From Cetorhinus maximus (lineage: Eukaryota): a DNA stretch of 64,000 nt. This document shows positions 10,552 through 63,295 of this stretch, piece after piece (position 1 is the stretch's first letter; each line of letters begins with the position of its first letter). A model generated the notes under the pieces. It saw only the letters and a program-made list of their open reading frames with translations. It searched no databases and had not been told where the DNA came from. Location: assembly GCF_964194155.1 (NCBI RefSeq), contig NC_135890.1:39990001-40054000 (forward strand). The letters run 5' to 3'. The position numbers and the translations under genes are program-made.

Positions 10552-10654
10552 AACAAAATAAAAACAGAATTACCTGGAAAAACTCAGCAAGTCTGGCAGC
10601 ATCGGCGGAGAAGAAATCAGTCAACGTTTCGAGCCCTCATGGCCCTTCAGCAGA
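10552..10654 (-). mobile_element. Young 103 bp Penelope-like terminal fragment with hammerhead-like motif
   Basis: Flanked by the 15 bp direct repeat ACATGTTAAAGCTAG (10537-10551, 10655-10669). Identical over the shared length to the arms at 31540-31735. Confidence 0.88.
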
Positions 10655-19808: not shown

Positions 19809-20481
19809 GTATACCATATTAGTATACACCTGCACATAAGAGATGTACATTGATCATAAACCTTAGGGGCTTTTAGATTTCCCCTCCCTCCCAGTTAACA
19901 AAATTCCGACGACAATCCGTTAGTTACAAAGCTGCAAGTTTCAGGGCATATCCTCAGAATGGATAAGAAACTGGTTGAATGAGAACCCTGAGTCATGTTG
20001 GGTGGGTGGAAATACTGAGTGGGCTCTGTGTTTGGCTCACTATTGTTTGCAGCTTGCATTCAAGAACAGCAACTTATGTTTATATAATGCCTTTAATATA
20101 ATAAACTGAGCGTAAATGACCTGGATTCTGAAACTCAACAGAAAGGGCTAATTTTGCTCATTTTACTATATTAGGAAAGAGAGTGGAAATGGAGGAGGTG
20201 GTGAAAAAAAAAACTGAATAAGTTGGGTAAAATATGTGTGGCCAGTACAATGGCAGAAGAAACAAACATACTGTATGAGTGGCCTTGAAATACGTAAACA
20301 TGAAACTGAAAAAGACCTTGCTAGACTCTCTGATAAAGCTATACAACTAAATTTCTCAAAAGGAGAAATGAATGCCACTTTCAGTATAAATAACATTCAG
20401 ATGATCGTATATTGATCATGGTGGTGCAGTTGAGTTGCAGGTTATAGAGTACATGATACCAAGAAGTGGAAGGTCACATAT

Positions 20482-21390
20482 AAGCAGAAAATGCTAGAAA
20501 TACTCAGCTGGTCAGGCATCATCTGTGGAGAGCGAAACAGAGTTAATGTTTCAGGCTAATAATCTTCCATCAGAACTGGGAAAAGTTAGAACTGTCTTAA
20601 GTTGGTGAAAGGGATGAGGGTGGGAAAAAAACAAAAGGGAAAGTCCCTGATAGGAAAGAAGACAAGAGACATTAAATGACAAAAGAGTTAGTGAAGCAGA
20701 GTCAAAGGGAGTGGTAATCCGACATAAAAAAACAAAAGATGTGTGTAGAGGAGGTGTGAATGTCAGAATAACGAACAGATGCCGTTCAAAAGCCAAACAA
20801 CAAGAGTAAGACCAAAACATACAAAGAAAAGGAAACCAATGGGGGCAGAGGTTAGAATCTGAAATCGTTGAATTTAGTACTGAGTCTGGAAGGCTGTAAA
20901 GTACTTAATCAAACGATGAGATGCTATTCCTTGAGCTTGTATTGAGCTTCATTGAATCAGTAGGCCGAGAACAGAGGGGTTAGCATGAGATCAAAGTAGA
21001 CAATTAAAATGCGAGGCTGTTGGAAACTTGGGATTGTCTGTGGACTGAACGGAGGTGTTGTGCAAAGCAGTCACCCAATTTGTTTGGTCTCTCCAACAAG
21101 AAGACCGTGTTGTGAGCAGCAAATACAGTATGCTAAATTGAAAGAAGTCCATGTAAATCTTGATATGTTTAACCTGGAAGTATGTTTGGGCAATTGTGGA
21201 GTGGACCAAGGTATCATGGGGAATAGTCACTTCAGAATGCTAAAAGGAGAGTGGAGGGGAAGATATGTTTGGTGATGGCATCACACTGGAGGTGGCAGAA
21301 ATGGCAGAGGATGATCCATTGAATGTGGAAGTTGGTGGGTTGAAAACTGAGGACAATTGGAATCCTGTCGTGCTTTTGGGAAAGAGAGGG
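20482..21390 (-). mobile_element. Penelope-like element remnant (GIY-YIG endonuclease region and terminal repeat)
   Basis: Minus strand carries a decayed YC.CS..GLL..GETK...GD.FA.HLRSV pattern. The terminus contains CCAGTT-CTGATGG...GAAAC-ATT-AACTCTG. Confidence 0.8.
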
Positions 21391-28610: not shown

Positions 28611-31539
28611 TCACAAGAAATAGGAGCTGGAGCAGGCCATGTGGCAATTGAGCATGCTCCACCATTCAATATGATCATGGCTGATCTTGGGCTTAGCTTC
28701 ATTTTTCTGCCCGCTCCCCATATTTCTTAATTCCCTGAGAGACCAAAAACTTGTCTATCCCAGCCTTAAATGTATTCAATGATTGAGTTTCTGGCTATGC
28801 CAACATTTATTGCACATCCCTCTTTTGCCCTTGAGAAGGTGGTGGTGAGCCGCTGCCTTGAGTTGCTGCTGTCCATGTGGTGCAGGTACACCCACATGAT
28901 GGGAGGGCATACAGACTTTAAATGAGTTTAAGCTTGTGAAGGGGTGTGGTGGAAAGGAGGCTGGTTAGAAGTCAGATTAAAACTTGAGGTAATGATGGCA
29001 TGAATTCAGGTTTTAATTGGAGACAGAAACCAAAAAAGGAGGTCTCCTTTTTTGACAGCATTAAGCAAGAAAATATTTATACTGTTTTTCTCTCCTGATC
29101 ATTATCAAATCTTGTCAGATTGTTATATTCCCTCTGAGCATCAAGATAAGGGGAAAAAGACGATCATGAACCATGGCTGTTTCATGACAAAAATCATAGA
29201 ATGATGTAGCACAGAAAGAGGCATTTGGCACGCTCTTGAGCAGCAATCCAGTTAGTTCCACTCATAGCCCTACAGAAGCTTTCCCCTTCAAGTATTTATC
29301 CAAATTCATTTCGAAAGTTATCATTAAATCTGCAGTGCAGTACATTCCAGATCATCATAACTTACTGCATAAAGAGAAAAAAATGTTTCCTTATGTGGCC
29401 TCAGGTTCTTTACCAGTCATCATGACAAAATATACACGGGTTGGTTGGTGTGCCTTGTAACCTGTGCAACACCCAGATCCACGGGCAAAGGAAAGGAAAT
29501 ACTTAAAATGTGTCCGTGTTACTTTATAATCACTATTTATTGCTGACTACAAATTTTTGCTTTAATTTACTTTTCATTCCAATCTGATTATTGTATTGAC
29601 TCCCCAGTGTCTCCTGCTGACGCCTTTTGAATTAAATAAATATCAACCATACCACCAGTAAATAGATGTAATTGCATATTTTGACTCTCATAAAATTTGA
29701 TCTGTTCTACTGATCAGAGAGTGAAGCAGTAGGTTAGCATACTTGCTGATTATTTCTAGATTGAAATGTTTAATTTATTTAGTTGATACATACCTGAAAT
29801 CTGGTTGAACTACAAAATGTCTGTATTGAACATTTTTTTCCATTTGCCCTTTCTACATCAAAATAATCTGAGGTGAAATCTAAGGTAGAATTTCAGTGTA
29901 ACTAACATTGTGTGAAATTTTAATATAGCAGCAATACTTGTAAGCTAGCATTTATATAGCCTCTTTTAATATACAGTAATTATCCAAATATCTCCAAAGT
30001 TTTCACAACACCGTGCGTTGAACCTTTTTAAGAAGGCAAATGTGGCAGTTGTTCTGTGCTAGTCATAACCTTATCAGATGCGTTGCTGGCCTTGTTTTTA
30101 GTGGCATTGATTTGAGGGAGGAATGTCAGGTAAGACATTTGGAGAACTACCAGCTCTTCTTTGAGCCATGGGATCTTTAATGTTTACGTTACCTGATATT
30201 GCTTTAATGTTTCATTTGAAGGATGGATTCTCCAACACTGCAGTATTCCTTCAACCTATATGCAGTTAACTGCATGTATTGGAATTGAACTCAAAGCCTT
30301 CTGACCAGGAGCATTTGACCCAAGCTCAGACCAGCTTGATACGTTCCTTGGTCTTAAATCGGTTCTGCAGTTGTTTGCCAAATGTGGCTTGTAAAAGGAA
30401 CAACTATAGAATGAATCTTTAAGTCTTCAGCTCTCAAAGTTTATATGTTATGTTTGATCAAGGGGTGTTTTTTAATTTATGATGTTCAAAATGTGCTTGA
30501 AAGGGGCAAATATTGTATTGGAATGTGTTTACATACCTGTTGGATTTGGCTCAGTCGAGGCTGAGTCTGGCTACTGACTCAGAAGCTTGTGATCAAGCTC
30601 TACTTACGTAATCTAAACTAACTTCACTATACTATTGAAGAGGTGCTACATTGCTGGAAGTGTCATTTTTTGGATGAGTTGTTAAACGGAGGCCTCACCT
30701 ATCAGTTCTGGTGGACGTCAAAGATTCCAGAGCAATATTTACAGAAGAACAAATATTTCTGCCAATCTCCTAGCCAACATTCCTGTCTCAAAAGCACCAC
30801 CAAAACATACACTCTGGCTGTTGATCTTACTTTTTTTATGTTGACAATTGGTTGCAACGTTTATTACAAAACAGTGTCCAAAGTTCATAAGTAAATAATT
30901 GGCTATGAAGCACTTTGGAACATCCTCGGGACACAATAGGCGCTGTATAAATGAAAAGTTCCTTCTTTACCTTTCACTGTGTTGAATAGGGAAGATTTTC
31001 TTATTTTATTCTTTCATGGAATGTGGGTGTCACTGGCAAGGCCAGCATTTGTTGCCCCTCCCTAATTGCCCTTGAGCTGAGTGGCTTGATAGGCCAACTT
31101 TGCAGACAGTTAAGAGCCAACCACATTACTGTGGATCTAGAGTCACATGTAGGCCAGACCAGGTAAGGATGGCAGATTTCCTTCCCTAAAGAACATTAAT
31201 GAACCAGATGGCTTTTTACAACAATCAGTGATAGTTTCATGGTTTCATAATTTCACCATTACTGAGCCTAGCTTTCAATTCCAGATTTTATGAATTGAAT
31301 TTAAATTCCACCAGCTGCCATGGCGGGATTTGAACTCCTTACCCCTAAAGCATTAGCCTCGGCCTATGGATTACTAGTCTAGTAACATTACAGCTACGCC
31401 ACTGGTTCCCACTAATTGGTGAAGTTATAATTGAACCTTGGACTATTGGATACAATTTTGCAGTTAAACAGTAATATTTCAAATTAGGAATAGATTTGCC
31501 CTCTGGGAAAATTATTTGAGTTGACTTTGATTTGGGCAT

Positions 31540-31785
31540 AATAAAAACAGAATTACCTGGAAAAACTCAGCAAGTCTGGCAGCATCGGCGGAGAAGAAAT
31601 CAGTCAACGTTTCGAGCCCTCATGGCCCTTCAGCAGAACTGCTGAAGGGCCATGAGGGCTCGAAACGTTGACTGATTTCTTCTCCGCCGATGCTGCCAGA
31701 CTTGCTGAGTTTTTCCAGGTAATTCTGTTTTTATTTTGTTTTGGATTTCCAGCATCCGCAGTAGCTTTTAGCTTTTTGTTTTTAT
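31540..31785. mobile_element. Young Penelope-like inverted insertion forming a perfect palindrome
   Basis: 97 bp arms (31540-31636, 31639-31735) around an AA spacer. 15 bp TSD CTTTGATTTGGGCAT at 31525-31539 and 31786-31800. Confidence 0.93.
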
Positions 31786-32559
31786 CTTTGATTTGGGCAT
31801 GGCTGGCAAATCACTTAATTAGTTAATTCTTATAAGATTAGAATAGGAACTTGTACAGGTAACATGAAAATTATGACCTTTCATGCAATTCATTAAAAAT
31901 AACTGCACTAATTCTGATGACTCTGTTGCTGGATGAAACTTGGTATTTGAATCGCTTATGCCTGAGCTTTCCTTCCCATACAGAACAATCTTGTTAATTC
32001 AGTTACAGGGTCAGATGTGGCTTAGATTTCCAAATCACGGCTCAGATGGCAGAATTATTGCCTCGATATTCTATCAAATCCCTTCTTGCCTCCTCAGGTG
32101 AACGTATAAGATCCCAGGTGCTGTTTTTGAAGTAGAGCAGAGGAGATATCCCTGGTGTCCTAGCGAATAGTTATTCCTCAACCAACATCACAAAACAGAT
32201 GATCTTATCATTGTCACGTTGCTGTTTGTGGGAGCTAACTGTCTGCAATTGGTTGCCATGCTTTGTTCATTACAACTTTAAAAAGTACTTCATTGGCTGT
32301 AAACCATTTTGGATCATGCTATGGTTGTGGAAGGCATGATATGTCTTAAGTTGCGAGCAATACTTCTCCACTTTGTGATTCAAAGACTGGTATTTTATGG
32401 TGCCAGATATATGTTGTGCTGGAGCCATAACTGTAACCAATGTGGATGTGATTTCAAAGTTCTCATGGTATATGTAAATTTTTCTACATTAGGGATTGCA
32501 TCTTGCTTGTGTATTTGTATGGCAACCTAAATTTCGTCAATTTACTTAGATGAACCATA

Positions 32560-33495
32560 TAAATATAAACAGAAAATGCTGGAAATACTCAGCAAATCTG
32601 GCACCTTTTGTGGAGAGAGAAACAGTTAATATTTCAGATCTGTGACCATTGATCAGAAGTGAGTATAGTTGGAAATGTAATCAGTTTTGAGCAGGTTGGG
32701 GGGGTGGGGACAGTGCAAGTTGGGAAGAACAACAAAAGAGAAAGTCTGTGAATGAATGGAGACCAGGAGGGATTAAATTACAAAATTAATTTTGGAGCAA
32801 GGCCAAAGAGAGTAGTAATGGGACAAATAAAGAAACAAAATATGTGCCCAAAGGAGCTGTGAATGGCATGATAGCTGCCATATGAACGCAAAGTAAAGAC
32901 ATTGAGAAAGAAATAAGAGAACCAAACCAGCAAAAAAAGTGGAATCAAAATGTGGAATCAAAAATCAAAATTTGTTGAACTCAGTGTTGAGTCCAGAAGG
33001 CTGTAAAGTGCACAGCCGAAAGATGAAGTTCTCTTCCTCAACCTTGCATTGAGCTTCATTGGAACATTGTAGCAGGCCAAAGATAGAAAGGCCCAAGTAG
33101 GTACAAGTTGGAGAATTAAAATGACAGGCGATTAAAAGCTTGGGGTGGTATAGCTTGTGGACTGAATGGAAGCGATCAGCAATGCGGTCTCTCAGACTGG
33201 ATTTGGTCTCCCCATGTTGAGGAGACTGCATCATGAGCAGCAAATTCAGTATATACTAAATTGAAATAAGTATAAGCAAATTGCTGTTTCACTTGGAAGG
33301 AGTGTTTGGGGCCTTGGATGGTGTGAATGGAGTAGGTAAAAGAAGTTCCGTCTCCTGCGCTTGCATGGAAAGGTGCCGTTGGAAAGGGGTGTTGGAGCGC
33401 CTAAGGAGTGGACCACGGTGTCACAGAAGGCATGGTGGAGGTGGCGGAAATGGCAGAGGGTGACCAGTTGGATGTGGAGGTGGGTGGGGCCCTCA
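32560..33495 (-). mobile_element. Penelope-like element remnant
   Basis: ORF GETKSSLRDRIADRFHSV...ACHFNS...KVEEENFIFRLCTLQPSGLNTEF (GIY-YIG C-terminal half) and the AAAACAGAAAATGCTGGAAATACTCAGC terminus. Confidence 0.85.
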
Positions 33496-42127: not shown

Positions 42128-43796
42128 CTGAAAATGTCTAGTGAAAGTAGCATGCTGCAGCCTTCTGCCTCTGGAGATTACATTTGGATTTAGCCCGTTT
42201 GGAGTGGTAAGGCAGCATGAAGTAATTGTGGGCGGTATTCATCGAATGACAGGTTGACTCATTGCCTCTCTTTACTGCAGAGAGTTGCAGTGTATGCATT
42301 TGTTTTGATTTGCTAACCATAATGGATTTGTCCAATTCGTTGTGCAAAGGGGTGTGTTTTTTCTCTCCAAGTTCAATAAACATTTGATTTGGTAACTGAG
42401 AAATCGTTTAAAAAAACAAATACATTTGGGGTCCAATTGACCTAGAGAGAAAAATATTAGCTGCATTGATGGCAAGTCTTTCAAAAATAAATCCGTAACT
42501 AAAATTTTATTGACTTCCTCTTGAAATTAAATTCTTTTTAAGCTAATTAAATATTGTGACCAAGTGTAGCTCACATTCCTTTCACAGTTACATCTTTACA
42601 ACAAAATTATATATCTTGCCTGGGAGATGGTAATTATTTTGCTGATGGCCATTTCATCAATAATTTAGTCTAGTTGCCTAGTTACACTGAAAATATTTTG
42701 TACATTTGTCACATCTCATGATAGGAGGTCTGCGTACACTGTATTGGGTAACTGAAGGTAATTATTTCTTCTTGACAATGACCAGGTGAAACCATGAGTA
42801 AAAATTTTTTGTCTGATAGTATGAGATGAAAATGTTTATGATTGGTAACACTCAAGTCACTGATCTTAAATTTGAATATCATATGGTATGTATAAAGCAC
42901 AATAAACATAGAAAAAAAATTACTTCTAAAGGAGTTTTAAGATAAATGAGAGAAAAATGATTCTAGTTATTCTGTGAAAGATTAAGATTAATTACTTTTT
43001 AGATAAATTTGAGTTGTATTTCCAGAAATTAGCCTGCCATTTTTAAGAAAGTGCTGTAAAATTGCTCATTAAACTGTTCAGGTTTAAACGCAGCAATTGA
43101 TTAATTGATTTATATTTGACCTGTACTGAAGCAGTATTACGTCAAACTTTGTTGCCCTGCAAAAATTAGATGGTCATGTTTAATAGAATAGCTCTTAAAA
43201 GGATGAAGCCTGGACCCCTGGAGACATTATTAGCCATGAATGGCTTACAGACTGGTTGATGGACTGGACTGACTCAGGGCAGATGAAATTCATTGCAGAA
43301 AAGTGTTGCAGTTATATATCTTTTACAAAGTATTTACAGTAAAGAAAGAGGCCCAACAGGTCGATGCCGGTGTTAATTCTCCACATGAACCACCTCCCAC
43401 CTCTTTACATCTAACCCCATCAACAAATCCTTATATTCCTTTCTCCCTTATGTTTATCTACCTGCCCCTTAGTCACATCCTTCTTGAGGGTAAGGAAGTT
43501 TCTCTTGAATTTCCTATTGGATATGTTAGTGATTATCTCATATATATGACCAAAGCTCTGTCCCCCACAAGTGGAAACATCTTTAAGTCTAGTCTTTCAA
43601 ACCCTTTCATAACTTTAAAGACCTCTATCAGGTCAGCCCTCTTCCTCTTTCTAAGTGTAAAGAGCCTCAGTCTGTTCAGTATTTCCTGATAAGGAGGCAC
43701 ATTTCAGCAATGCCATTTTATTTGGTGCTTGAGCCATAATATAAGTATATATAAATTTAAAAAATATAAGGGGATGGATAAACTTAATTCATGTGA

Positions 43797-44320
43797 AGTA
43801 AAAACAGAAAATTCTGGAAACACTCAACAGGTTGGTTAGCATCTGTCGGGAGAGAAACGGTGTTAATGTTTCAGGTCAATGAGTTTTCATCAGAGCTCAA
43901 AGATCTTGGAGAAGAACAGCTTTTAAACAATTACAGAGCAAAGGAAAAGGGGTGGAGGGAAAGCACAAAGGAGAATGATCTGTGATACGGTGAGCGCAGG
44001 AGTGATTAAATGGTAAAATGATGATGGTGCAAAATCCCATTATGGGATATTACTGTAGAAACAAAAGATAGTCCAGAATAAATGTACAGCAGAATAACAG
44101 AGGTGAAGGAAACTGACGAATCTGGCAATGTGGATAGGGTTGTCATGCCCTGTGAATGTGGAGGAAGAAAGGCAGCTACCAACAGGGCATGCCTAACCCA
44201 AGCAACAACCCACACATCTTCCATTCCGAATGTCTCTGGTCAGACATACTCCATTATCAGCATCTGTTGTCTGGGAGAAAGTGGGAGTGGTTGTTCAGAT
44301 TTAAAGCTATTAAACTCAAT
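43797..44320 (-). mobile_element. Penelope-like terminal remnant
   Basis: TAAAAACAGAAAATTCTGGAAACACTCAACAGG terminus; minus-strand CTGATGA...GAAAC-ATT-AAC. Confidence 0.7.
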
Positions 44321-45745: not shown

Positions 45746-45878
45746 CAGCTCTGAAGAAGAGTCATATGGACTCAAAACATTAACTCTGTTTCTCCACAGA
45801 TGCTGCCTGACCTCCTGAGTTTCTCCAGCGTTTTCTGTTTTTATTTGAGTTCCAGCATCTGTAGTATTTTGCTTTTAT
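45746..45878 (+). mobile_element. Short older Penelope-like terminal fragment starting at the hammerhead motif
   Basis: CAGCT-CTGAAGA-A-GAGTC-ATATG-GACTC-AAAAC-ATT-AACTCTG...GCTTTTAT, with near-TSD TCTTCCCTCA / TCTTCCTCA. Confidence 0.75.
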
Positions 45879-46568: not shown

Positions 46569-46748
<180 letters not shown>

Positions 46749-47036
46749 TAAATCTGGTATTGAAGTAGGAAGGTAGCATCTCAGCTTTTCAAGCAACAAA
46801 TTTTGAACGAAACCAGTGTTCATTAAATAAAGCATGCAAGTTGTGTATATCAAGAATTTTTAAAACATGCTTATGTATATTACATGTTTAAACTCCTGTG
46901 TCGTCATAAATTATTTTTACTCATTTGTCGCATCAATTGTACTAGTAGTATAATGATGCCTTTCTAAAATGGTCTTTGGCTTGTTGACTTTAGAGTTATT
47001 TTATTGCAAAGTTTTAACATTAAACATTTTTATTAA

Positions 47037-48020: not shown

Positions 48021-49529
48021 AATTCAACCAGATGTAAACATTCAGCGTGAACATCTGCATCAACAGAAAGATGGAGTAATCATCATGATAGGTTTTAGTG
48101 AAAGATACTGTAGTTCCAGTTATACTGGTAGTTTTGAGAGAGATTTTTTAAAAAGTCTTCATTCACTTGAATTTATAAAAATTGCAGTTGCAATAATGGT
48201 TACAAAAGATACAGGGTACATTGTGCATACTTTACAGCTAGATAATCAACCTGCAGATGACCTTCCCGCTTTTTAAGAAAAAGGGAAAGCAATTTTAAAA
48301 GGTTTAAAAGGAGATTTAACAGAGGCTTTTAACATTATGAAAAATTTCGATAGTCAATAAGGAAAAGTTATTTCCTCCCATTTGGGGAGTAAGCGATGAG
48401 AAATTTAAGAGCGAGGCAATAGGTTGGGAGACATTTTTTACACAGAGGATTGTTCTACCTTGGAATGTTTTGATACAGGAAATGGTTGAGGCAGAAAATT
48501 GCTTTTAGAGAAATAGGAGAAACATTTAAAACCAAGAAAATAGGAAGCTATGGGGATGTCACTAAACAGTGGGAACAGTTTTGTATTTTTCTAGAAAAGG
48601 ATGGGTCCAAATGCGATGGACTGAATGGCTTTTTGTTGTGTTGAAAATATCTATTGTACAGGGAAATCATTTCCACAAACAGCCAGGTTAGATATTAAGT
48701 TATCAGTAACGATAGCATTGGTTATTAGCTACATTTTTCCACCTAGTTGCAGTCAAGTTAATTTTGGAAATGTTTTCCTACCTGCCATGATCTGTTACCA
48801 TTTTATAATTGGCATCACAGTTTACCATCCTTACTCTGTTGAACTCAACAATGTAAATAAATACTTTATTATGAAAGCGAGCTTTGACTTGAAAAAAGGC
48901 AGCGGGCTGTTAATTCTTTGCTTATTTTACCAGCCTCATTAAACACTTGACATATTTATGGTAAGTGGTTCTGTAAGGTGAAACTAAAATGTTCAGCCAC
49001 ATCTGTGTTAATAAAAGCATTACTCAAATCTATTAATCTTTTGTGATTTGATGTTTTAGCTCATCAGCACTATCTTTGTGTAAAGAGAAGTAATCCTTAA
49101 TGCCTAATTCATTAATGCTAGCAACTGGTAGTTGGATGTGAAATCTAAATGAGTGGTAAGATTCTTGTTTAACACTCCTTCCATATTGTGTAGGCTCCTG
49201 ACCTCGGTTTAAACATTTTGGCTAGAAACAAGGTACGATCCCTGAATGATAAGAGGACAGGAGTTAAATCAGAAGAGAGTTAAATTGTGCAAAAGCTCAT
49301 AAGATGGTTATTTCCCATCCAGTTGGTTCAGATGGATGCATGTGCATGGTACAAATTTTAAAGGGATGTTTATGCCAGTTAAATAAGTCACTAGCCCTCG
49401 GAAATAACACCGATGCATGAAAAAGGGACATATTCTTTTGTGCACATGCTTTTCACCATTACTCATGATCCAATATTTCAGACCAATAAGCTGCTTTGTC
49501 ATCAGAAGACCTAGCATAAAAATGATGCA

Positions 49530-50700
49530 AATAGAAATAGAAAATGCTGGTAATACTCAGCAGGTCAGGCAGCATTTGTGTGGAGAGAAACAGAGCTAAT
49601 GTTTCAGATTGGCCTTTCATTGGAACTGGGAGAAGATAAAGATCTAATAGGTTTTGAGCAGGGGGTGGCTGGGATGAAGATGAAAGAAAGGCCTGTGGTA
49701 GCATGGAAGACAGGGGAGATTGAATGACAGAAGCGTTAGTCTTACAGTGCCAAAGGGAATGTGATAGGGCAGGAAAAGAAACAAAAGATGTGCTTAAAGC
49801 AGGTATGCTGCTGTCTGAAAGCAAACAGAGAAAAACTGAAACATGCAAAGGAAACAAAATGGTGGGGACAGAGTTTACAGTCTGAAATTTGTTGAACTCA
49901 GTGTTGAGCCTGGAAGGCTATAAAATGCCTGATCAAAAATGAGGTGATGTTCCTCAAGCTTACGTTGTGCTTCACTGGAACAATGCACAGGCCAAGGGCA
50001 GAGATGTCAGTGTAAAAGCCAAGTGAAGAATTAAATGATATGCCACCAGAAGCTTGGGGGTTATGCTTGCGGGCTGAATGAAGATGTCCCCCAAAGGGTT
50101 CACCTATCCTGCATTTGGTTTCCTTAATGTAGAGGATACCACATTGTGAATAGCGCTTACAGTAGACTAAATTGAAAGAAGTTCTCCTAAATTGCTGCCT
50201 CACCTGGAAAGAGTGTTTGGGGCCTTGGATGCTGAGGAGAGAGATTATAAAAGGGAGGTGTTACATTTCTTATGTTTGCATGGAAAGGTGCCGTGGGATG
50301 GAGACAGGATGTTGGGGGCGATTGAGGAGTAAACATGGTATCAGGGAGAGAATAGTCCCTTCGGAATGCTGAAAGGGGAGGGGAAGATGTGCTTGATAGT
50401 GGCATCACGCTGGGGGTGGCAGAAATGGCAGAAAATGATCCATTGAATACGGAGGCTGGTGGGATGAAAGGTGAGAACAAGGGGATCCTATCTTGGTTCT
50501 GGGAGAGAGGGGAAAGGATGAGAGCAGAAATGCAGAAAACGTGGTGGGGGGAATCCTCGATTGAGGAAAAAAGAAGACATCTCAAGTGCTGCTGTAGAAG
50601 GTTGCATAATCAAAATAGATGCGATGGAGACGGAGGAACTGGAAGAATGGAATGTGGTCCTTACAGGGTTTAGGATGTAAGGAAGTGTAGTCGAGTTGGC
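49530..50700 (-). mobile_element. Penelope-like element remnant
   Basis: ORF SFNLVYCKRYSQCGILYIKETKCRIGEPFGGHLHS (GIY-YIG) and QDRIPLF...LSAFRRDYSL (linker), with the typical terminus. Confidence 0.85.
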
Positions 50701-54120: not shown

Positions 54121-55117
54121 AGTATATCAGCTTAAATAATGTGCTTTCCTAGATTGGGGCTTGAACCCATAACCTTCTAACTATGAGACAGAAGTGATAC
54201 CTGATGATCCAAGTAAATGCTAGAGGTAACAAGATATGTTCCTATAGAGAACATAAATTGAGGTATATGGAAAGAAGGTGGTGATTAGGTTTGGTTCCAT
54301 TCAATCAACACAAATTGGCCAAATACATTTTCTCTGTTCATTAAAGTTCATGAATGAAGTTCTTGTGACACATTTTCCCTTCCAGATCTGGCACAGTTGT
54401 GCTCCTGATAGTAAATATATGTATTGAATTGCTGCAACCAACCACAATAGTTTCCTCATTTACTTGTATTGAAGTAATCGTATGGTAGAATTACAGCTTG
54501 ATATGCAGGAGATGATAGCAAATAGTAGGTGTGAAGACATGTAAAATAAAAGCAAAATCCTGCAGGTGCTGGAAATCTGAAATAGAAACAGAAAATGCTG
54601 GAAAAATTCAGCAAGTCTTGCAGCATCTGTGGAGAGAGAGGATCTAGAACGAGGAGTTACTGTTTAAAAATAAGGGGTCGTTCATTTAAGACAGAGATGA
54701 GGAGAAATATTTTCTCTAAGTGTTGAGTCTTTGGAACTCTCTTCCTCAAAAAACAGTGGAAGCAGAGTCTTTGAGTATTTTTAAGGCAGAGCTAGATAGA
54801 TTCTTGATTAACAAGAGGATGAAAGGTTATCGGGGGTAGGCAGGAATGTGAGGTTGAGAACAAAGAACAAAGAAAAGTACAGCACAGGAACAGGCCCTTA
54901 GGCCCTCCAAGCCTGCACCGATCATATTGCCTGTCAAACTAAAACATTTTGTACTTCCGGGGTCCAAAATATTTTAGTTTGACAGGCAATATGAGGTTAC
55001 AGTCAGATCAGCCATGGCCTTATTGAATGGTGGAGCAGGCTCAAGTGGCCTGCTCTGAATTCGTATGTTAACGTATTGAAGAGCCAGTTTTGAAGATGAG
55101 TCATATTGGACTCAAAA

Positions 55118-55400
55118 ATAAAAACAAAAAGCTACTGCGGATGCTGGAACAAAGACCACCACCTTCAACACCTCTTTGACCCTTTTGTCTCTGACATCTT
55201 TTGATTATCTGCTCACACCACACCCTCAATGTGTCTCTTCCCCCCCACCCACCTTAAACCAATTTATATTTCTCCCTTGTTGAAACTATGCTTCAGTTCT
55301 GCCGAAGAGCCATGAGGGCTCGAAACGTTGACTGATTTCTTCTCCGCCGATGCTGCCAGACTTGCTGAGTTTTTCCAGGTAATTCTGTTTTTATTTTGTT
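55118..55400 (+). mobile_element. Young Penelope-like insertion with inverted 32 bp terminal segment
   Basis: 12 bp TSD TTGGACTCAAAA (55106-55117, 55401-55412). Only two substitutions relative to the 31.6 kb right arm across 55299-55400. Confidence 0.88.
55293..55335 (+). ncRNA. Minimal type I hammerhead ribozyme-like motif (variant C6 core)
   Basis: Stem I UCAGUU/GACUGA, core CUGCCGA+A, stem II GAGCC/GGCUC, then GAAA, palindromic AACGUU in place of stem III, and predicted cleavage triplet GUU ending at 55329. Activity untested. Confidence 0.65.
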
Positions 55401-56105
55401 TTGGACTCAAAACGCTAACTCTGTTTCTCTCTCTACAGATGGTGCCAGATCTGCTGGGTTTTTCCATCTTTTTCTTTTTTTGTTCACAAAAACATGTGGT
55501 TGGTATACTTTTACAAAAGAATAATTCGAGGAAAAATTCTAGGTGTCTAAAATGTGATTAAGCAAGTTTTGCGAGTGATTTAATTGAACTCCCATTGATT
55601 AACAAAGCAGAGTAAAATTCACATTATCTAGATATGTTGCCATTCTACTCAGTGGCTATTTTGGAAGGTTAAATGTCATTTCATCAGAGACTTTTAGCTT
55701 TTATAATTTACAGTGCAGTGTGGAAATGACCTTTACATCAAACGGAAAAACCGTGTATTCTTCAAGAACTTGAACTAAGTGTAGCAGGCTAATGACTTCT
55801 AATCAGTATGAAATTACTTCAGATCTTGATAATGCTCCTTCATTGTGTCCTGTTTCATATGTAAGAGGAAAAATCATACTGAGCCAGTGAATCAGCTGTA
55901 ACATTGCATTGTTGTGAGGATAATTGCAGCAAATGCTATAATTGCATGTATTGTATAAAAGGGCTATGTTAACCTTGTCAGTGGACAAGATTTACCATAC
56001 TTTAAAAGGAACTTTTGAAAAACAGTGACAGGATTCTAATTCAATCCAAATTAAATAATGTTTTTAAGAACATTACAGCCTCTGAGGACTAAATATGTAC
56101 ATATA

Positions 56106-62700: not shown

Positions 62701-63129
62701 AGTCTTGTAGTGTGATGATCATGTTTTGTTCGATGGTTGAATGAATAAGGAAAAGTACTGGGTTACCTACTGTTGATTGAGTGCTCCTTAATCTTTGTTT
62801 GAAGTTCAGTATCTAATCCAAAGCTTCCTGGGCAGTCCCCCTTTCCTGTTGCTTATCCGGTTATGTTTGAAGTTGGGGCATGATGTCAATAGTATAAACT
62901 AACTTGATAGAAAGATCACCTATGAAGGATAAGGAAAATACTTATAGATCATGATGAATCTTTAAACCAATGGTGCTAGAATATCTTAGGAGTCAGAACT
63001 TTTTGTTAGAAATGCCAATCTAAATTATATAGCCCTTATTTTATTTAACATGGTAAATAGGAACAGATCTAGCAACTTATATCGTTATTCACGCTTAAGA
63101 TTATGTTTTTATCTTTTCCTTAAAATAAG

Positions 63130-63295
63130 AATCCTACACAGGTAGGAACAGCACTTCAAGTTTTCTACAACCTTGGAACCTTAAAGGAGACGATCAGAAG
63201 TGTAGTCGATGGGTATCAGGTATCTCTCGAAGATAATATCAGTAGTGCTTTGGATATAAAAATGTTAACTCAACCCATTCAAGCCACCTCAAGAG
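63130..63295 (+). CDS. COG5: COG5 exon 8 (AAG acceptor, GC donor)
   Basis: [55 protein letters not shown](G). The phase-1 join to exon 9 needs the donor AG|GCAAGT. Confidence 0.9.

Follow-up and report, generated by a model that had tools for sequence, protein, structure and literature searches.

With slightly better than even confidence, we read the motif at 55293-55335 (plus strand) of the window, the whole stretch of 64,000 nucleotides that was analysed, as the minimal hammerhead of a recently active Neptune-type Penelope-like element, whose lineage changed core position 6 from A to U and then to C, and as a slowed, dimer-dependent ribozyme cutting a small share of its RNA. This slowed ribozyme is most likely dispensable for a single insertion yet kept over the lineage, and would probably be protein-dependent. 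In line with a slowed ribozyme, the A6C ribozymes in the literature lose speed in Mg2+ but remain active; Table 1 of PMC7151607 lists rates of 0.067 per min at 1 mM Mg2+ for a mouse-gut ribozyme and 0.004 for that of Bcep176.

The plus strand of the motif reads TCAGTT CTGCCGA A GAGCC ATGAG GGCTC GAAAC GTT GACTGA. Both the sequence and its folding give a stem I of 6 bp (55293-55298/55330-55335) and a stem II of 5 bp (55307-55311/55317-55321), as the original prediction had it. The core CUGCCGA (55299-55305) is followed by an extra A (55306), and the segment GAAACGUU (55322-55329) lies between stem II and the 3' strand of stem I. In hammerhead numbering, C3, C6, G12, A15.1, U16.1, and U17 are at 55299, 55302, 55322, 55325, 55328, and 55329, respectively, which places the predicted cleavage site GUU/G between 55329 and 55330. 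The features of a minimal type I hammerhead of Penelope-like elements are present, namely stems I and II, the extra base after A9, G10.1-C11.1, the palindromic 15.2-16.2, and NUH. With respect to the canonical core CUGANGA, the young-family motif lacks A6, the base of canonical hammerheads at this position, and has the remaining core bases. The window contains four strict motifs, whereas 60 mononucleotide shuffles contain none. An Rfam scan of the window at E≤5 did not detect the hammerhead motif, and the fold z-score of the 236-nt region of the right-end repeat (pLTR) is 0.64, which is not significant. We also rejected an alternative register that uses CUGAAG in the sister copies, as it is absent from the CTGCCGA copies and breaks the alignment with the A6 ancestors.

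AACGUU had been noted in the place of stem III. The palindrome is indeed there, but the helix III usable in a catalytic dimer is only the 4-bp ACGU/ACGU, the 6-nt palindrome taking in A14 and N17. A monomer cannot form a closed helix III. The pairing of the ACGU duplex is weak, with a computed energy of -1.7 kcal/mol, and minimum-free-energy cofolding of two motifs returns a strand-swapped dimer without helix III. Upstream, a TATATTT lies 30 nt 5' of TCAGTT (55265-55298, plus strand), a spacing kept in every subfamily stage. TCAGTT resembles the initiator consensus. Based on this spacing and a junction hot spot at the A of TCAGTT (55295), transcription likely starts at this A.

The motif resides in a 283-bp insertion (55118-55400) made of a pLTR fragment preceded by a tail in inverted orientation. 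Specifically, comparison with genome copies assigns 55149-55400 (plus strand) to a 5'-truncated pLTR of the youngest subfamily, and 55118-55148 (minus strand) reads as an inverted short second arm consisting of the tail segment only. A 12-bp target-site duplication flanks the insertion (left copy 55106-55117, right copy 55401-55412), and many other genomic copies match 55149-55405 with 100% identity. The insertion splits an older A6-type pLTR remnant (55086-55485, plus strand) into about 55086-55117 and 55413-55485; its landing site there is the stem II/GAAA region of the older A6 hammerhead remnant. COG5 exons with PF20649 (COG5_C) are located upstream (46632-46754) and downstream (63124-63288) on the plus strand; hence, the copy is intronic and in sense orientation relative to COG5, as originally stated. 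It is a truncated dead-end insertion, and we attach no significance to its location in COG5 because a lone copy has no dimer partner.

Three sister motifs, all CTGCTGA with GGGCC/GGCTC, were located as anticipated. Two of them, at 31606-31636 (minus) and 31639-31669 (plus), are the C6 hammerheads of a double-armed back-to-back insertion (31537-31790) with a 15-bp duplication at 31525-31539/31786-31800. The third, at 10623-10653 (minus), belongs to a short single-arm copy (10552-10654, minus strand) with a 15-bp duplication at 10537-10551/10655-10669. The older relatives with A6 also proved to be as described: a CTGAAGA remnant at 45751-45846 (plus), in which G12 has decayed to A, and a CTGATGA remnant at 43796-43893 (minus), whose core is at 43893. 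Further pLTR remnants in the window, at 20476-20577, 32561-32625, 49529-49630, and 54580-54644, are decayed, come from older Penelope families, and lie on the minus strand. At 54919-54996 there is a near-perfect inverted repeat with arms of about 30 bp, which has only spurious microRNA-family matches below the gathering score and is likely the fold-back junction of another repeat.

Longer genomic copies yield the 3,291-bp repeat unit of the parent element, whose two repeats each carry a C6 hammerhead and whose single 917-aa ORF encodes an RT followed by a C-terminal GIY-YIG domain. The tandem hammerheads are spaced 3,291-3,293 bp apart. Of 12 long loci tested, eight have an intact ORF, and these eight carry C6 in all their hammerheads. 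Its matches to RVT_1 (E=8e-7) and GIY-YIG (E=4e-4) are both just below the Pfam cut-offs; the motifs DKG, YIDD, LYIGET, and CCHH are present, and the RT-GIY-YIG linker contains CX2-5CxxC as CPRRRCNTC at residue 783. Among 8,000 candidates, 735 protein relatives were found at E≤1e-30, and the best named one is a protein of the bamboo shark Chiloscyllium, 69% identical across 65%. The anatomy comprises a partial tandem (pLTR), inverted 5'-truncated arms, and ends near +104 and +150, these 3' ends, spaced by about 45 nt, defining an optional tail; this layout agrees with the Penelope anatomy in the literature (PMC8557442, PMC11167929). Judged by its reading frame and anatomy, this is an endonuclease-positive Penelope-like element and the autonomous RT plus GIY-YIG parent of the motif, in line with the Penelope origin first suggested. 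Its assignment as Neptune type rests on the linker, as CX2-5CxxC marks the Neptune/Nematis clades (PMC8557442), and on Neptune's reported presence in vertebrates. A non-LTR retrozyme, in which non-coding tandem monomers carry a hammerhead, was rejected since the unit is a 3.3-kb coding element. A loose pattern search for a second, canonical hammerhead within the repeat unit returned none. One rearranged copy (L046, G000:C1:14985200-14994400) has a 1,405-aa in-frame ORF beside the intact 917-aa ORF.

Genome-wide, the young sequence context has C6 in 2,882 of 2,888 copies, with U6 in five, G6 in one, and A6 in none. C6 is therefore fixed rather than sporadic, as claimed. One wider descriptor counted 23,011 A6, 36,363 U6, 23,628 C6, and 1,169 G6 motifs, and reversing the search patterns as a control yielded no matches in the genome. 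A6 is thus replaced in about 60,000 of the approximately 84,000 descriptor matches, U6 is the most numerous state, and G6 remains at 1.4%. Descriptor searches requiring CUGANGA would miss about 70% of the motifs in this genome, including those of the active family.

A tree was built from 109 of 254 parsed copies, with the upstream pLTR required, the young family thinned, and positions 6-7 masked. Its topology is a single ladder. Position 6 changes 15 times on it, compared with 48 times (minimum 42) when labels are shuffled. Divergence within stages is 8.8% for A6, 4.0-5.6% for the stages with A and U, 3.3-4.3% for those with U and C, and mostly 0.4-1.7% for pure C6 stages, with one C6 stage at 4.3% and several stages of only one to four rows. 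A branch with support 85 (not starred) sets off the latest 39 rows, which comprise 35 C and four U, the latter of a kind fetched as rare point variants. The ladder and the stage-by-stage fall in divergence order the states as A, U, and C, with overlap. A single clean A-U-C step is not supported: individual stages mix first A with U and later U with C. After U6, C6 spread over at least seven later subfamilies. Hence, tabulating position 6 against age, as originally proposed, uncovers a series of which only the last step had been seen: the fixation of C6 in an active subfamily stands, while a direct A6C step in one young subfamily does not, as A6 had been lost much earlier to U6. Four public contig sets, given without ends or strand, were aligned to the element and list no difference at position 6; the public sets for the element number 23, all assembled contigs, from four organisms and two metagenomes.

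We then compared the rest of the motif across stages. From the first U6-majority stage to the youngest, none of the ten core sites changed versus 25 of the 57 spacer and loop neighbours (Fisher p=0.01), and with dimer and closing-pair sites added the count is 0 of 15 (p=0.0007); the aligned copies were mostly fetched with core-containing patterns. When nine core sites were left free in the search, all nine were kept in 62,611 of 78,748 copies. Among the first 100 rows listed, 16 deviate, either scattered or by CpG decay, and about half of these are G12A, which looks like decay because stem II shows a matching mirror change of the CpG. During the C6 period, stem II underwent a compensatory swap from U-A via U.G to C-G, and stem I was lengthened from 4 to 6 bp. 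Stem II is 100% paired in 16 representatives. Older stages have broken outer pairs in stem I, and a C.A mismatch interrupts stem II in one minor side family with U6. The stem covariation named in the original prediction as a check is thus present, but modest: one fully compensatory pair in a single lineage (six cells; 23 of 500 shuffles as high).

The same data bear on whether the ribozyme has been a dead relic since the loss of A6, the rest seeming conserved only through the short elapsed time. Fourfold-degenerate ORF sites differ by only about 0.1-0.2 between U6 copies and the youngest family in the longer alignments, decay included, so zero change at ten core sites is not significant on this yardstick. 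In addition, position 6 itself moved twice, like a free site, and ends at the cut site are rare. Against a relic stand the neighbours that changed in the same period when the core did not, the full pairing that stem II of the aligned representatives kept across three substitutions, and the lengthening of stem I. We consider a relic improbable. Between subfamilies, fourfold ORF sites evolve far more slowly than the noncoding region round the hammerhead, where 25 of 57 sites changed; escape from host silencing is one possible cause of the rapid change.

Copy ends were inspected for traces of cleavage. Young copies running through the cut site number 3,732, and about 20 (ca. 0.5%) end there. The 31 matches with another preceding base gave 25 junctions called by script and 20 merged events, the merging being done by hand, chosen after looking, and leaving out duplicates, second arms, and two chimeras. 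At four neighbouring positions, 46 matches gave 29 junctions and 18 events, or 25 when partner arms are kept. Relative to these neighbours (eight letter slots), the cut site (three letters) has a two- to three-fold excess of junctions per slot, with p=0.0008, 0.01, or 0.03 depending on event merging, the last with six identical junctions left out. Those six events are one common junction, which microhomology could favour; a 6-bp palindrome three bases off offers better microhomology and has only five events. One insertion (L360/L361) has both arms blunt at the cut site. This modest excess hints at residual cleavage. Palindromes at the cut site occur in none of 2,016 A6 ancestors versus nine of 10,453 members of C6 families, a comparison of few events confounded by GTTAAC microhomology. 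Three chimeras join an older body and hammerhead to a young tail, with the switch within 5 nt containing the predicted cut site (L381, G000:C37:1189000-1193000, both arms of which are chimeric; L382, G000:C5:118623500-118627200; L383, G000:C400:272800-274200); the search was conditioned on the cut-site position, and no usable control could be drawn from the 325 typed copies.

The commonest short end is the initiator-like A four bases before the core, seen in 27 of 30 inspected matches and 14 more. Copies ending there derive from uncut RNA, and the back-to-back hammerhead palindromes are read as run-off products because many short copies end at this A of TCAGTT (L280-L309). Two insertions share a core-breaking base between their parts, U16.1G in both arms of L375 (G000:C2:86529300-86534800) and G16.2C in both tandem repeats of L374 (G000:C10:72143800-72152500); therefore, these insertions were likely copied from RNA whose core was broken. 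As most copies run through the site and these two insertions have a broken core, cleavage is likely slow and unneeded for each insertion. In 12 of 23 multi-arm loci, all arms or repeats carry the same private variants, which shows that repeated reading of a single template or source is the usual case. Such rereading is compatible with a circle closed at the cut site as well as with strand transfer at the start site. Routine use of two different RNAs per insertion is mostly not borne out by these loci. The arms of L242 (G000:C1:19142900-19144300) come from two subfamilies, and L243-L245 and L103 are four mixed C6/U6 double-armed pairs, hand-picked from listings and hence giving no rate; some insertions therefore use two different templates.

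These observations are also compatible with a fold kept for a non-catalytic job, such as RT binding, joining two templates, or overlapping an internal promoter at the start site, with cleavage lost. We regard such a structural role as rather unlikely. The ends derived from uncut RNA, the likely copying of broken cores, and the two-subfamily arms of L242 suit it, and the literature offers hammerhead mutants without effect on insertion in vitro (PMC11167929), an internal promoter in the corresponding region of D. virilis Penelope (PMC2377424), and Naiad elements that thrive without hammerheads (PMC8557442). It does not readily account for the chemistry bases G8, G12, and U16.1, which stayed fixed through about ten subfamily replacements, nor for the rows examined, where no broken-core variant founded a subfamily, nor for G6 remaining so rare. 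Moreover, the private variants shared in 12 of 23 loci point mostly to one source, which weakens the pairing of two RNAs. The original suggestion that the motif may cleave weakly or act structurally can be counted as supported. That an element should still transpose without A6 is a weaker paradox than supposed, as hammerhead mutations in a lizard Penelope element left insertion in vitro unaffected (PMC11167929).

At the other extreme, the C6 ribozyme could be fully active in vivo by compensation, through Mn2+ preference, the element's protein, the longer stem I, or strand-swapping with intron-transcribed A6 copies. The phage A6C hammerhead with altered metal preference, mentioned in the original prediction, has a published precedent that prefers Mn2+ (PMC3088659, PMC7151607), and a lizard hammerhead cleaves only with protein (PMC11167929). 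Stem I was lengthened in the C6 period, and old A6 copies have the AGUU/ACGU pairing faces in common with young ones. However, full activity predicts many copies starting at the cut site, not some 0.5%. Cellular Mg2+ is far above Mn2+ (PMC7151607), and the commonest state is U6, not C6, for which the literature covered contains no metal switch. Full compensation is thus quite unlikely.

For the slowed ribozyme that we favour, the following course is proposed. Transcription would start some 4 nt 5' of the core. Two hammerheads, either both repeats of one RNA or those of two RNAs, would exchange strands and pair via ACGU/ACGU, probably aided by the element's protein. Reverse transcription would begin in the downstream tail and mostly copy uncut RNA. 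Slow cutting may still be selected, for example for the timing of processing or for making unit-length or circular RNA. A further proposal, possible but tentative, is that the lineage tuned its ribozyme down via A6, U6, and C6 while selection maintained the chemistry and reinforced stem I, and that cleavage and re-joining in vivo left fossils in the form of copies and inter-subfamily chimeras broken at the scissile bond. If true, a near-invariant core base would act as a rate dial, and the fossils would be direct evidence of germline cutting and ligation by Penelope hammerheads. The role of the hammerhead in Penelope-like elements is debated, between processing of tandem RNA and merely riding along (PMC8557442), and the shark genome provides a natural test of why these elements retain it. 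It holds a dated A6, U6, and C6 series of one motif that ends in an intact autonomous element; therefore, a short RNA panel can separate selection for catalysis from selection for the fold only.

The metazoan hammerheads of Penelope-like elements described in PMC4209133 resemble the shark motif in several respects. They are type I, lie in both pLTRs of an element with RT and GIY-YIG, have the extra nucleotide after A9, G10.1-C11.1, and the palindromic 15.2-16.2, and lack helix III. The elements likewise show tandem spacing of about 3 kb and nearby opposite-strand pairs. In contrast to the mostly non-A6 shark element, every row of the alignment given there has A6, the descriptor having fixed the catalytic boxes, and no row is from a shark; the only core variant of the minimal hammerhead noted in the covered part of that paper (Cervera and de la Pena 2014) is U3-A8 in Schistosoma. 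The small dimer-cleaving hammerheads of Lunse, Weinberg and Breaker 2017 belong to the same structural class as the shark motif according to a review (PMC6765202). Our literature search, whose reach did not extend to the Lunse 2017 variants, returned no report of a non-A6 Penelope core.

The Anolis Poseidon element PAc (Frangieh 2024, PMC11167929) shares with the shark element 3' ends about 45 nt apart, double-armed insertions, and a hammerhead near the ORF start. Its hammerhead cleaves only with protein, its mutants have no effect on in vitro insertion, and in RNA-seq the study saw no reads that ended at its cut site. PAc is of the Penelope/Poseidon clade and its ORF begins inside the hammerhead, whereas the shark ORF begins some 180 nt 3' of C3 and has the Neptune/Nematis CX2-5CxxC linker. 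The same change at position 6 occurs in the Bcep176 phage hammerhead, a natural A6C variant whose core CUGCUGA is also that of the larger young shark subfamily (PMC3088659, PMC7151607). It is a single intergenic phage ribozyme that has a closed stem III and cleaves alone. The shark motif differs in being of dimer type, residing in a vertebrate retrotransposon, having reached C6 via U6, and having been amplified many thousandfold. Taken together, minimal Penelope hammerheads (PMC4209133) and phage A6C (PMC3088659) are already known, and what is new, relative to the literature covered, is a non-A6 core in a Penelope lineage.
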